Source of the DNA: Puniceicoccales bacterium
GTDB lineage: Bacteria > Verrucomicrobiota > Verrucomicrobiia > Opitutales > LL51
Length of the DNA stretch: 32,000 nucleotides
NCBI GenBank assembly: GCA_031283585.1
Contig: JAITBP010000013.1
Coordinates: 30,001 to 62,000, forward strand
Direction of reading: 5' to 3'
Shown: positions 659-2,451 of the stretch, one piece after another
Layout of the letters: every line of letters begins with the position of its first letter
Numbering within the stretch: the stretch's first letter is position 1
Program-made: the position numbers and the translations under genes
Notes under the pieces: model-generated
Database searches by the model: none
What the model was told of the DNA's origin: nothing
What the model saw: the letters and a program-made list of their open reading frames with translations, nothing else

Positions 659-1084
659 ATGAGCGAAATTGATTCGATGTTAAAGGCCTTGGAAGGTCAT
701 CGAGATATTATTCATCTAGACAGGGAGCTGGGGATTGTTCAGTTTGCCGTGGATGGTAACATGTTTCAGATTGAAAGCATACCGGAGCTTGGTTGTCTGT
801 CAATGAGCTCGGTGTTGAGTGGCATAGATATAGAGGATGAGAATTTGACAGCGGTACTGTTTGGCCTCATGACATTGAATTTGTATAACTATCAAACCTT
901 CGGGCTGGGCCTTGGATTGGATGCCACAAGGATGAATGTGGTAGCATTTAAAAATATCTATGAAAATGATATGAAGTATAGCAATTTGGCCAATATTACC
1001 GAGGATTTTATCAAAAAGTTTCTGGCCCTCAGGAACCTATTTGAGTCAGAATTTCATGACACATTTGTCAAAAAATTTTTATAA
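659..1084 (+). CDS. Small acidic protein resembling a class I type III secretion chaperone (CesT/SycE/Slc1-like, YbjN-type fold)
   Basis: 141 aa with no signal peptide or TM. My count is about 21 D/E versus 11 K/R. The pattern GIVQFAVDGNMFQIESIPELGCLSMSSVL...LMTLNLYNYQTFGLGLGLDATRMNVVAFKNI plus a C-terminal amphipathic helix resembles T3S chaperones. It lies 9 nt upstream of a candidate cargo gene. The call rests on pattern recognition only. Confidence 0.5.
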   Translation: MSEIDSMLKALEGHRDIIHLDRELGIVQFAVDGNMFQIESIPELGCLSMSSVLSGIDIEDENLTAVLFGLMTLNLYNYQTFGLGLGLDATRMNVVAFKNIYENDMKYSNLANITEDFIKKFLALRNLFESEFHDTFVKKFL

Positions 1085-1092
1085 TATTTATC

Positions 1093-2451
1093 ATGGGTAT
1101 AGATAGGATAGGGAGTCATGACAATAGCAATTTGTTGTCAAATATCAAAGATAGCCATTCCATCGGGAAAAATACGCCGGCTGACTCAAAAATAAGTATC
1201 AGTAAAAATAAAAACCCAGCTACCATTTCAGAAAATACTTCCAGTAAGGATTTGATATTCAGTGAATTGAAAAGAAGACTGGCCATCTCGAAAGCAGGCT
1301 ATATCCCTGTTACTGTCAAAGAAAGACAGATTGCCGGTGGGGTAGCCAAAAACGATGGGTTAGGTACGGTTAATGACTGTCCAAAATGGAAAACATCGCT
1401 CAGCAAAGATTTAAATTTTTCCAAAAGCAGCAATTTAACAAGGTTACTAAGCGTACTAGTTGGTTGGGGTGATGCTTTATTTAAAATTATTGCCCATATA
1501 TTGCCGCCAATTAACCTTATATCAAAGCTTATTACCGGTGAAAATGTTCATCTGTCCCAGTCGGTGGTTCCGGGGCTAAAAGAACTGAATTCTTGTGAGG
1601 TGATCAATTCGCAAAAAGAAATCGCTCTTTCCGATGTGCAATCAGAAAAAAGGCAGGAAATTCAGTTTGCTTCCATGGTTTTATCGGCATTAAAAGATGA
1701 TATCAATAAAAACAGGTTTGGTGAAATAGGGAAAGATCGAGCAGTGTTGATAGGAGGTACTGCTACGCTTGATTCATTACCGAAAGAGGTTAGGGAGAAA
1801 ACTGCTCTACTTATGTCCAAACTAGGCGAAGGTGGGTTTGAAATTTGCGACGATGGAGTAATTCGCCAAAAAGATCGTGATGATGGCAACCATGGTCCAT
1901 TTGAAGCCATGTTGGCCTATGATAATGAAACAAAAAATGTGTTTTTAGCTTTTAGAGGAACCTCCGGTGGTGAAAGAATTGAAACCGTATTATCTGATGC
2001 CATGCAGCATTTCGGTCTGACGGATAATCTATACAAAAGCGCTATTTTGTTAACGGATATGGCGAAACAGTGTTTTGGTGATAAAAATTTAATAATTTCT
2101 GGCCATTCGCTTGGTGGTGGTATGGCCCAATTGGCTGCTGCGGTTTCCGGGTTGCCAGGGATAGTTGTAAACCCGGCACCTGTCAATAAGACTCTTTGGG
2201 CAAGAACTCGCCTGACCAACGATGATTTGAGAAATGCTAGCCAAAGGATATTTCAGCTAAGCGTTAAAAATGATGTGCTCAGCGATGTGGCATTTTCAAA
2301 TAGTCCTGAGTCAAAAGTTGCCCAGATCGGTACGAAGGTTGTCATCGACTATTCCAATGAGGAAGATAGGAAGAATGCGTTTATAAACCATGCGTCCAGC
2401 ACGGCCTTTGATTGTTTGCAAGAAAACATCAAAGAATTGGAAGCAGCCTGA
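1093..2451 (+). CDS. Class-3 (Lipase_3-type) alpha/beta-hydrolase lipase with a long polar N-terminal region; candidate secreted effector
   Basis: 452 aa. Motifs are VFLAFRGT and the nucleophile elbow GHSLGGG (Ser339, nt 2107-2109). Candidate triad partners are Asp in KNDVLSD and His in FINHASS. The first ~60 aa are S/N/K-rich with no signal peptide, and residues ~116-147 are hydrophobic. Confidence 0.75.
   Translation: MGIDRIGSHDNSNLLSNIKDSHSIGKNTPADSKISISKNKNPATISENTSSKDLIFSELKRRLAISKAGYIPVTVKERQIAGGVAKNDGLGTVNDCPKWKTSLSKDLNFSKSSNLTRLLSVLVGWGDALFKIIAHILPPINLISKLITGENVHLSQSVVPGLKELNSCEVINSQKEIALSDVQSEKRQEIQFASMVLSALKDDINKNRFGEIGKDRAVLIGGTATLDSLPKEVREKTALLMSKLGEGGFEICDDGVIRQKDRDDGNHGPFEAMLAYDNETKNVFLAFRGTSGGERIETVLSDAMQHFGLTDNLYKSAILLTDMAKQCFGDKNLIISGHSLGGGMAQLAAAVSGLPGIVVNPAPVNKTLWARTRLTNDDLRNASQRIFQLSVKNDVLSDVAFSNSPESKVAQIGTKVVIDYSNEEDRKNAFINHASSTAFDCLQENIKELEAA

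Follow-up and report, generated by a model that had tools for sequence, protein, structure and literature searches.

Gene pair and its features

We analysed a 32,000-nt stretch of DNA from a Puniceicoccales bacterium (family LL51 of the Opitutales, Verrucomicrobiota; assembly GCA_031283585.1, contig JAITBP010000013.1, positions 30,001 to 62,000 of the forward strand), referred to below as the window. Near its left end lie two adjoining genes on the plus strand, the first coding for a small acidic protein and the second for a lipase-type hydrolase. The original prediction took them for a type III secretion (T3S) chaperone and its effector. Both open reading frames (ORFs) were confirmed at the coordinates it gave, 659-1084 and 1093-2451; the spacer between them, put at 9 nt, is in fact 8 nt long (TATTTATC). 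The features of the pair are listed here, with related loci on other contigs designated by L numbers.

659..1084, plus strand: small gene, 141-aa acidic cytosolic protein, probably with a CesT / class I T3S-chaperone fold (ORF, Pfam, hhalign, AlphaFold/Foldseek)
1093..2451, plus strand: lipase/phospholipase-like gene, 452 aa, Pfam PF26363 'Phospholipase-like' (precomputed annotation)
1093..1377, plus strand: lipase residues 1-95, polar, rich in Ser, Asn, Lys and Ile, no signal peptide; candidate secretion signal
1378..1692, plus strand: lipase residues 96-200, conserved module near the N-terminus; candidate region for chaperone binding and/or membrane localisation
1738..2448, plus strand: alpha/beta-hydrolase lipase domain, residues 216-452, containing the part common to the L006 paralogue and the Tle6 / XVIPCD lipases
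2107..2109, plus strand: codon of Ser339, the nucleophile in GHSLGGG
2284..2286, plus strand: codon of Asp398, candidate catalytic acid, in an invariant SD motif
2389..2391, plus strand: codon of His433, candidate catalytic base

Conservation and evolution of the pair

A small gene followed 8-45 nt further on by a lipase gene is found in five loci, namely the window and four related termite-gut Puniceicoccales/Opitutales contigs (L002, L003, L005 and L006). Both genes are syntenic in related contigs and neither is a chance ORF. In L003 the gene order is kept, from an ABC transporter on the minus strand through the small gene and the lipase(s) to waaA, degT, pfkB, fabV and alaS. The location of the putative chaperone directly upstream of its presumed cargo, which had been highlighted as the classical layout, is a property of a conserved and co-inherited module.

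L006, which belongs to another metagenome-assembled genome (MAG), carries a second pair that has diverged considerably but has the same gene order. Its small protein (P0010) is 141 aa long and only 25% identical to that of the window. A gene for a 377-aa protein follows after 22 nt; over its C-terminal 209 residues this protein shares 31% identity with the lipase of the window (E 2e-25), the GHSLGG and SD motifs included. The two genes have thus diverged together, and two pairs this far apart that still share one order argue for a functional couple. The presence of the diverged copy in another MAG is also the reason why the pair is regarded as a conserved module.

The number of lipase genes per locus varies from one to three, or the lipase is present as a tandem fusion. 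Extra paralogues are located upstream of the pair, one in L002 and two in L005. L002 (8499-9911 and 10459-10803) thus has two lipase genes, the downstream copy having an N-terminus with His/Asn/Gly-rich and GGVAG repeats, and L005 has three lipase genes around a single chaperone-like gene (546-3551 and 4270-4695). In L003 (10448-13102) two complete lipase units are fused in frame into a protein of 884 aa.

When the window is compared with L003, identity amounts to 77-83% for the flanking housekeeping proteins, 68% for the small protein, and 59% and 48% for the two lipase units. Overall figures of 68-76% for the small protein and 41-59% for the lipase domain were obtained, the diverged L006 pair aside. 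The lipase evolves faster than its neighbours, and its copy number differs even among close relatives.

Homologues of both proteins are confined to a handful of contigs labelled Puniceicoccales bacterium. For the lipase, three homologues besides the query were found among 5.8 billion proteins. A pattern-based scan of genome contigs with the lipase alignment matched 2 of 185,579 GTDB species, both of them Gsp477 MAGs (isolates Gsp477_bin142, JAIRXD, and Gsp477_bin153, JAIRXJ), and the corresponding scan of metagenome contigs gave no match. The accessions of both MAGs fall in the range that Mies et al. 2024 deposited, and the designation Gsp477 refers to the gut of a lower termite from Thailand, Glyptotermes species 6 (PMC11257099).

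The small protein

The 141-aa protein (16 kDa) is acidic and devoid of a signal peptide, as had been described, with a pI of 4.57 and 21 Asp and Glu versus 11 Lys and Arg residues. It has no transmembrane segment, its N-terminus is not hydrophobic (KD19 maximum 1.06), and the ORF cannot be extended by a signal peptide from an in-frame start further upstream, as none exists.

CesT (PF05932) is the top Pfam family for the window protein, at 15.1 bits (cut-off 22) and an E-value of 0.026. It is the top match in four of five family members (three of the four sequences in alignment A1, plus P0010), with E-values between 6.5e-4 for the best member and 0.026, that of P0010 being 0.012. The relatives of the small protein carry the NCBI name 'type III secretion system chaperone'.

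Located 1.3 kb upstream of the L006 pair is a gene for a genuine CesT-family protein (PF05932, E 7e-21), which served for comparison by hhalign. The small-protein family matched this protein with a P-value of about 1e-3, and a 17-sequence profile of its family with a P-value of 6.6e-4 (27% probability). With a broader CesT profile, to which Yersinia YscB, SycE and SycT had been added, the probability rose to 61% (P 8e-5), and the alignment comprised 94 in-register columns over residues 23-119 of the small protein. Single YscB or SycE sequences gave no signal in hhalign, which appeared only when profile was compared with profile; phmmer and profile searches of the PDB sequences with the small protein returned nothing meaningful. 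The match to the broad profile is suggestive of remote homology only.

The structure was modelled twice with AlphaFold2, from alignments of four and five sequences, and both models were of low confidence (pLDDT 42 and 44). In the second, the order of elements is alpha-bbbb-alpha-bb-alpha, in keeping with what class I chaperones would lead one to expect (alpha-beta-beta-beta-alpha-beta-beta-alpha, as a homodimer). When this low-confidence model was compared with the PDB by Foldseek, the matches were almost exclusively class I T3S chaperones (ExsC, YscB/SycN, CesT, VecA, ShcA, SicP, SrcA, SigE, Spa15, SpcU and SycT), with E-values of 3e-3 to 0.4 and TM values of 0.4-0.5. The first model yielded no T3S-chaperone match by Foldseek, so the structural evidence for the fold is fragile.

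When these lines of evidence are combined, the small protein probably has a CesT-like fold. The proposed likeness to class I chaperones stands as far as the leading Pfam family, the profile comparison and the second model are concerned, and falls short at the Pfam cut-off; homology to CesT is weak to moderate.

The lipase

The first 60 residues of the lipase are indeed polar and free of a signal peptide (12 Ser, 8 Ile, 7 Asn and 7 Lys), and residues 1-95 are unalignable between orthologues. They are followed by a conserved module that begins with an invariant KWKTSL (98-103) and continues with an amphipathic or hydrophobic segment (about 116-148). This segment had been noted as a hydrophobic stretch at residues 116-147, which is correct in that it is moderately hydrophobic and centred at about residue 127; its KD19 peak of 1.6 characterises it as amphipathic/hydrophobic and not clearly transmembrane. 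On the basis of this peak a transmembrane anchor was rejected, as was export of the lipase by Sec, since there is no signal peptide.

In the C-terminal domain the motifs named in the original prediction were all recovered: FRGT at residue 287, GHSLGGG at 337-343, and Asp398 and His433 as candidate catalytic residues. Ser339, Asp398 and His433 are invariant across the paralogues (alignment A2). The divergent L006 copy (alignment A4) has kept the Ser and the Asp, whereas for its His the alignment is no more than plausible, the register being off by one residue. The data support assignment of the downstream gene to the Ser-Asp-His lipase-type hydrolases, with an N-terminus whose variability appears effector-like.

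A separate observation concerns the His that precedes the nucleophile within GHSLGGG. In some A2 paralogues (P0006, P0007 and the first L003 unit) it is replaced by Leu, Gln or Tyr, with Ser, Asp398 and His433 still invariant; these proteins may have an altered activity.

The affiliation with Lipase_3 needs qualification. A GxSxG elbow and the Ser-Asp-His set speak for it; the score is borderline, 22.1 bits against a cut-off of 22, and the match spans only 23 residues (330-352) at the nucleophile elbow. The paralogues score 15-22 bits with this family, except for 34.6 bits in the double-domain protein of L003, and the other local Pfam matches of the lipase are to weak generic alpha/beta-hydrolase families. 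'Class-3 lipase' is imprecise, and the domain is better described as PF26363 'Phospholipase-like', related to the Tle6 / Mbeg1-like toxin lipases.

This relationship is also evident from comparison with solved structures, where the best match is 7UBZ chain B, the Tle (Tle6) of the E. cloacae type VI secretion system (T6SS; E 1.2e-3, profile E 5.5e-3), and fungal class 3 lipases rank after it. A tblastn search of plasmids with the lipase retrieved Xanthomonas 'Mbeg1-like' proteins and an 'XVIPCD domain-containing' protein. A homologue from X. sacchari shares 45% identity with a 100-residue stretch of the lipase core (E 4e-17 pairwise, 7e-10 by tblastn) and carries XVIPCD (PF20410) with an E-value of 4e-18. 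Pfam found no XVIPCD in the window lipase at E <= 1, and no PAAR, VgrG, Rhs or RTX features. Because Tle6 and the Xanthomonas relatives are secreted toxins, the catalytic core belongs to a toxin-lipase group that is delivered by at least two secretion systems, the second being the type IV secretion system of Xanthomonas (X-T4SS).

In E. cloacae, Tle6 is partnered by Tli, a lipoprotein with six ankyrin repeats that acts as immunity protein (PMC11470151). An ankyrin-repeat gene adjoins the lipase homologue in both Xanthomonas plasmid loci that were inspected (L014 4097-5571; L015 2947-4942), which suggests that pairing with ankyrin-type immunity proteins is not limited to T6SS lipases but includes those of X-T4SS. 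Judged by its sequence, the window lipase has the same toxin-lipase core, but differs in its N-terminal region and in its partner, which is CesT-like instead of ankyrin.

Secretion route and host lineage

LL51 and UBA9783, families within the Opitutales, are described as putative endosymbionts of protists with small, low-GC genomes and nucleotide transporters (PMC11257099). Non-flagellar type III secretion systems (T3SSs) are present in some Verrucomicrobia (PMC3459982), and literature searches on T3SSs in Puniceicoccales/Opitutales yielded nothing of direct relevance.

Pfam annotation of all large ORFs revealed no secretion-apparatus genes in the window, as had been stated for those of a T3SS. 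The search for a T3SS covered about 250 kb in total, mostly DNA of related contigs and not whole MAGs. Because no T3SS component, whether of an injectisome or of flagellar export, was found in the reachable sequence, the T3SS route is a leading guess and not a result.

A second, separate gene is of interest in this lineage. It codes for a bona fide member of the CesT family (146-150 aa; PF05932 E 7e-21) and is 63-99% identical across contigs from termite gut, rumen and other metagenomes, some of which are scaffolds of 0.7-0.8 Mb. It is always followed by a fast-evolving, Ser/Gly/Lys-rich ORF of 75-115 aa (19-29% identity) and often then by a gene for a DUF2062 membrane protein. The gene always lies among housekeeping genes and never beside secretion-apparatus genes, and inspection of seven of its genomic contexts revealed no T3SS gene. 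The loci with the conserved CesT gene and the small ORF are:

L006: 2566-4115
L010, L011, L012: 10001-10768
L013: 10001-11445
L016: 10001-11466
L018: 5591-6416
L019: 10001-11540
L021: 3861-4580

Proposed mechanism and alternatives

Our preferred, though tentative, reading of the locus is a bicistronic chaperone-effector module that encodes an exported, membrane-attacking lipase, with a T3SS as the likeliest route and a eukaryotic cell as the likeliest target. Within it, the assignment as chaperone and effector is supported, and the T3SS route is unproven.

According to this proposal, the small protein would act in the cytosol as a dedicated CesT-fold chaperone of one or more lipase paralogues. 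It would bind the lipase at its conserved module near the N-terminus (KWKTSL and the amphipathic segment, residues ~96-150), keeping the enzyme soluble and export-competent and its amphipathic segment off the cell's own membrane. The variable polar N-terminus would then direct the lipase into Sec-independent export, most likely through a T3SS encoded elsewhere in the genome. In the target cell it might hydrolyse membrane (phospho)lipids by means of S339, D398 and H433, phospholipase activity being presumed. A gut flagellate or another eukaryotic host is the most likely target, since the pair includes no immunity gene and in view of the ecology of termite-gut Opitutales/Puniceicoccales.

In favour of this proposal count the recurrence of the pair, also in its diverged L006 version, the likeness of the small protein to CesT, the CesT-family gene near the L006 pair, the effector-like evolution and varying copy number of the lipase, the lack of signal peptides in both proteins, the kinship of the lipase with secreted toxins whose ankyrin partner is here replaced by a CesT-like one, and the description of the lineage as putative protist endosymbionts. 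Several findings weigh against it. The small protein remains below the Pfam gathering threshold for CesT and has no NCBIfam match, and the low confidence of both structural models, together with the failure of the first to match any T3S chaperone, has been mentioned. Its family is tiny, as an exhaustive profile search of 1.84 billion representatives added only one further true homologue, P0010. (A profile match to P0009, a repetitive surface-type protein of 965 aa, had an E-value of 2.4e-6 but resulted from six repeated short stretches and was discarded on inspection as a repeat-driven false positive.) In the lipase, the candidate binding region begins at about residue 96, and most characterised chaperone-binding domains start earlier than that. 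The window contains no Sct or flagellar export gene. A tblastn search with 16 Ysc proteins of Yersinia pCD1 against 221 kb (the window and related loci) found no T3SS gene, the sole match being that of Rho to SctN, and the Pfam lists of two further loci (~27 kb) contained none. Finally, family UBA9783 is described as having type IV pili and no flagella, with T3SS unmentioned (PMC12306168).

The alternative that survives best retains the chaperone and the exported lipase but not the T3SS. Export would follow another Sec-independent route, either similar to a T6SS, a type IV (T4SS) or type I secretion system (T1SS) or of an unknown kind, or the small protein would merely shield the hydrophobic N-terminal segment of the lipase until release. 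We consider this unlikely. The missing T3SS genes in all reachable sequence and the description of UBA9783, with type IV pili, without flagella and with T3SS unmentioned, are what would be anticipated from it, and so is the conserved CesT gene, which sits amid housekeeping genes in 7 of 7 contexts and never by apparatus genes. Moreover, delivery of the same lipase core by T6SS (Tle6) and by X-T4SS (XVIPCD) elsewhere implies that the module moves between secretion systems. None of the features of these routes (XVIPCD, PAAR, VgrG, Rhs, RTX) was detected in the lipase, however, and no T6SS, T4SS or T1SS genes in the flanks. The structural matches of the small protein are T3S chaperones and not the Eag/DUF1795 adaptors of T6SS, and the lipase N-terminus is rich in Ser, Asn, Ile and Lys, as expected for T3S substrates.

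A toxin with a cytoplasmic antitoxin or immunity protein is considerably less probable. The small protein would in this case inhibit the catalytic domain in the producer or its kin, and the lipase would be an interbacterial weapon. The closest characterised relatives of the lipase are antibacterial and always paired with a neutralising protein, the gene order and tight spacing are compatible, and a cytoplasmic partner has a precedent in the cytosolic form of Tli that is required for Tle function in E. cloacae (PMC11470151). The small protein, however, is not an ankyrin-repeat protein and has neither a signal peptide nor a lipobox; it would thus be unable to protect the periplasmic face, where such lipases act. 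One small gene accompanies up to three divergent lipase paralogues, whereas one cognate immunity gene per toxin would be expected. The greater conservation of the small protein (68-76%, compared with 41-59% for the lipase domain) is the opposite of what toxin-immunity co-diversification should produce, and secretion chaperones are what it matches best in structure and profile comparisons. The original prediction had considered a Tle/Tli-type arrangement unlikely, and the pairing of the closest lipase relatives with ankyrin-repeat immunity proteins, of which the small protein is not one, reinforces this view. The specific candidates of a classical Tle/Tli or X-Tfe/X-Tfi pair were rejected because the partner is not ankyrin and has no signal peptide, and the lipase lacks XVIPCD.

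In the weakest alternative the lipase is not exported but has a housekeeping or regulatory function, for instance in the remodelling of membrane lipids, and its small partner is a regulator whose resemblance to CesT is superficial. This could draw on the conserved synteny between an ABC transporter operon and lipopolysaccharide/lipid genes (waaA, fabV), the sub-threshold CesT membership and the lack of a secretion system in view. It is very improbable given a divergence far above that of the neighbours, an N-terminus that is hypervariable and of low complexity, the duplication in tandem and fusion of lipase units, and a very narrow taxonomic distribution (2 of 185,579 GTDB species; 3 homologues besides the query), all atypical for housekeeping enzymes, and given nearest relatives that are secreted toxins.

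A wider, and rather speculative, reading is that protist-associated Opitutales with reduced genomes have joined a family of CesT-fold chaperones to a toxin lipase of the Tle6 / X-Tfe type. This could take two forms. The pair might represent the first effector-chaperone system of an undescribed verrucomicrobial injectisome directed against termite-gut flagellates; or there is no T3SS, and CesT-like chaperones might serve other Sec-independent export or handle lipases in the cytoplasm. The separate pair of the conserved CesT gene and the fast-evolving ORF of ~100 aa would, within this wider reading, belong to the same system.

The chaperone-effector module proposed above, if correct, would provide a first molecular handle on how uncultured termite-gut Opitutales/Puniceicoccales, which are presumed to live inside gut flagellates or on their surface, interact with host cells. 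A further consequence would be that one toxin-lipase core is used in three modes of delivery (T6SS Tle6, Xanthomonas T4SS and a CesT-type chaperone), each time with a different partner. If the genomes are without a T3SS, the highly conserved CesT-like genes in them, small as these genomes are, would point to a T3SS-independent use of the chaperone fold.

Neighbouring genes and transcription signals

Pattern scans indicated two candidate signals around the pair:

622..649, plus strand: sigma-70-like promoter candidate, TTGACA-16 nt-TAAAAT, 11/12 matches (pattern scan only)
2463..2486, plus strand: terminator-like hairpin, 12 nt 3' of the lipase stop codon and before waaA (pattern scan)

The promoter candidate ends 9 nt ahead of the start codon of the small gene, in a divergent intergenic region of 145 nt (514-658). 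On the opposite side of this region is an ABC-ATPase gene (1-513, minus strand) that extends past the edge of the window. Evidence for the hairpin is weak, because one such structure was found where 1.9 were expected. As pattern matches only, the promoter-like and terminator-like sites are compatible with a bicistronic unit.

The rest of the window has a housekeeping character, with waaA, a DegT aminotransferase, a PfkB kinase, fabV, alaS, rho, ribosomal proteins, PBP2, lgt, obg, gpsA and glycogen synthase. Two further regions were noted. An ORF of 453 aa without a Pfam match (21061-22422, plus strand) is found in the kilobase with the lowest GC content of the window (32% vs ~41%); features of its product are a clear signal peptide at the N-terminus, a tract rich in Ser, Thr and Pro, and a tandem Arg-rich repeat (RGRRRT/RGRRRA) at the C-terminus. 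At 12112-13313 (plus strand), two adjoining ORFs, for 192 and 208 aa, come after one of 352 aa that has a weak TIG-domain match. The 208-aa protein has an N-terminal methylation (pilin/pseudopilin) motif with a sub-threshold score, and the two ORFs may code for minor pilins of a type IV pilus or a type II secretion system.

Comparison with known systems

Of the characterised systems, the T6SS pair Tle6-Tli shares with the locus an alpha/beta hydrolase, similarity around the GHSLGGG elbow and a partner encoded alongside. Tle6 (Slp in Serratia) is a phospholipase A1/A2 with a Ser-acid-His triad. The similarity is confined to ~70-77 residues, however, and the acid is Glu in Tle6 but Asp in the window lipase. 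Tli is an all-helical ankyrin lipoprotein, whereas the window partner is probably alpha/beta and CesT-like, has no signal peptide and gave no ankyrin match in Pfam. Pfam annotation, which covered the window and flanks, showed neither T6SS genes nor linkage to VgrG/PAAR. The X-T4SS effector lipases likewise share the lipase core and are of the secreted toxin type, but have a C-terminal XVIPCD and an ankyrin neighbour where the window lipase has a long N-terminal extension and a CesT-like partner.

Class I chaperone-effector pairs of T3SSs, represented here by SycE-YopE, CesT-Tir and SicP-SptP, and by SpcU-ExoU of Pseudomonas aeruginosa for a phospholipase cargo, also consist of a small (about 120-160 aa), acidic cytosolic protein encoded next to its cargo. 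For the window protein, CesT is the best match in Pfam, profile and structural comparisons, and the presumed cargo has a polar N-terminus without signal peptide, then a conserved region and then a lipid-hydrolase domain. By analogy with the membrane-localisation domains of Yops, which are masked by the chaperone, the hydrophobic N-terminal segment of the lipase could be masked by the small protein. The window pair differs in its sub-threshold relationship to CesT, in that no T3SS gene was found in the sequence searched, and in that between one and three lipase paralogues occur with a single chaperone gene.

There are precedents for phospholipases that have accessory proteins and are exported by T3SSs, namely ExoU/SpcU, and YplA via flagellar and Ysc/Ysa systems. 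ExoU is a patatin-like phospholipase A2, unlike the alpha/beta-hydrolase lipase of the window, and spcU lies downstream of exoU. In YplA/YplB of Yersinia enterocolitica and PhlA/PhlB of Serratia, a phospholipase A1 of the GxSxG lipase type, without a Sec signal, is exported by the flagellar T3SS and handled in the cytoplasm by a small accessory protein. The accessory gene is located downstream, and no likeness of it to CesT is known. A further difference is that the UBA9783 relatives are reported to be without flagella.

Functionally, the pair most resembles class I chaperone-effector pairs, while its catalytic domain is closest to the Tle6 and X-Tfe lipases. We regard the pair as the recombination of a toxin-type lipase with a CesT-like partner, in a phylum for which no such system has been described.

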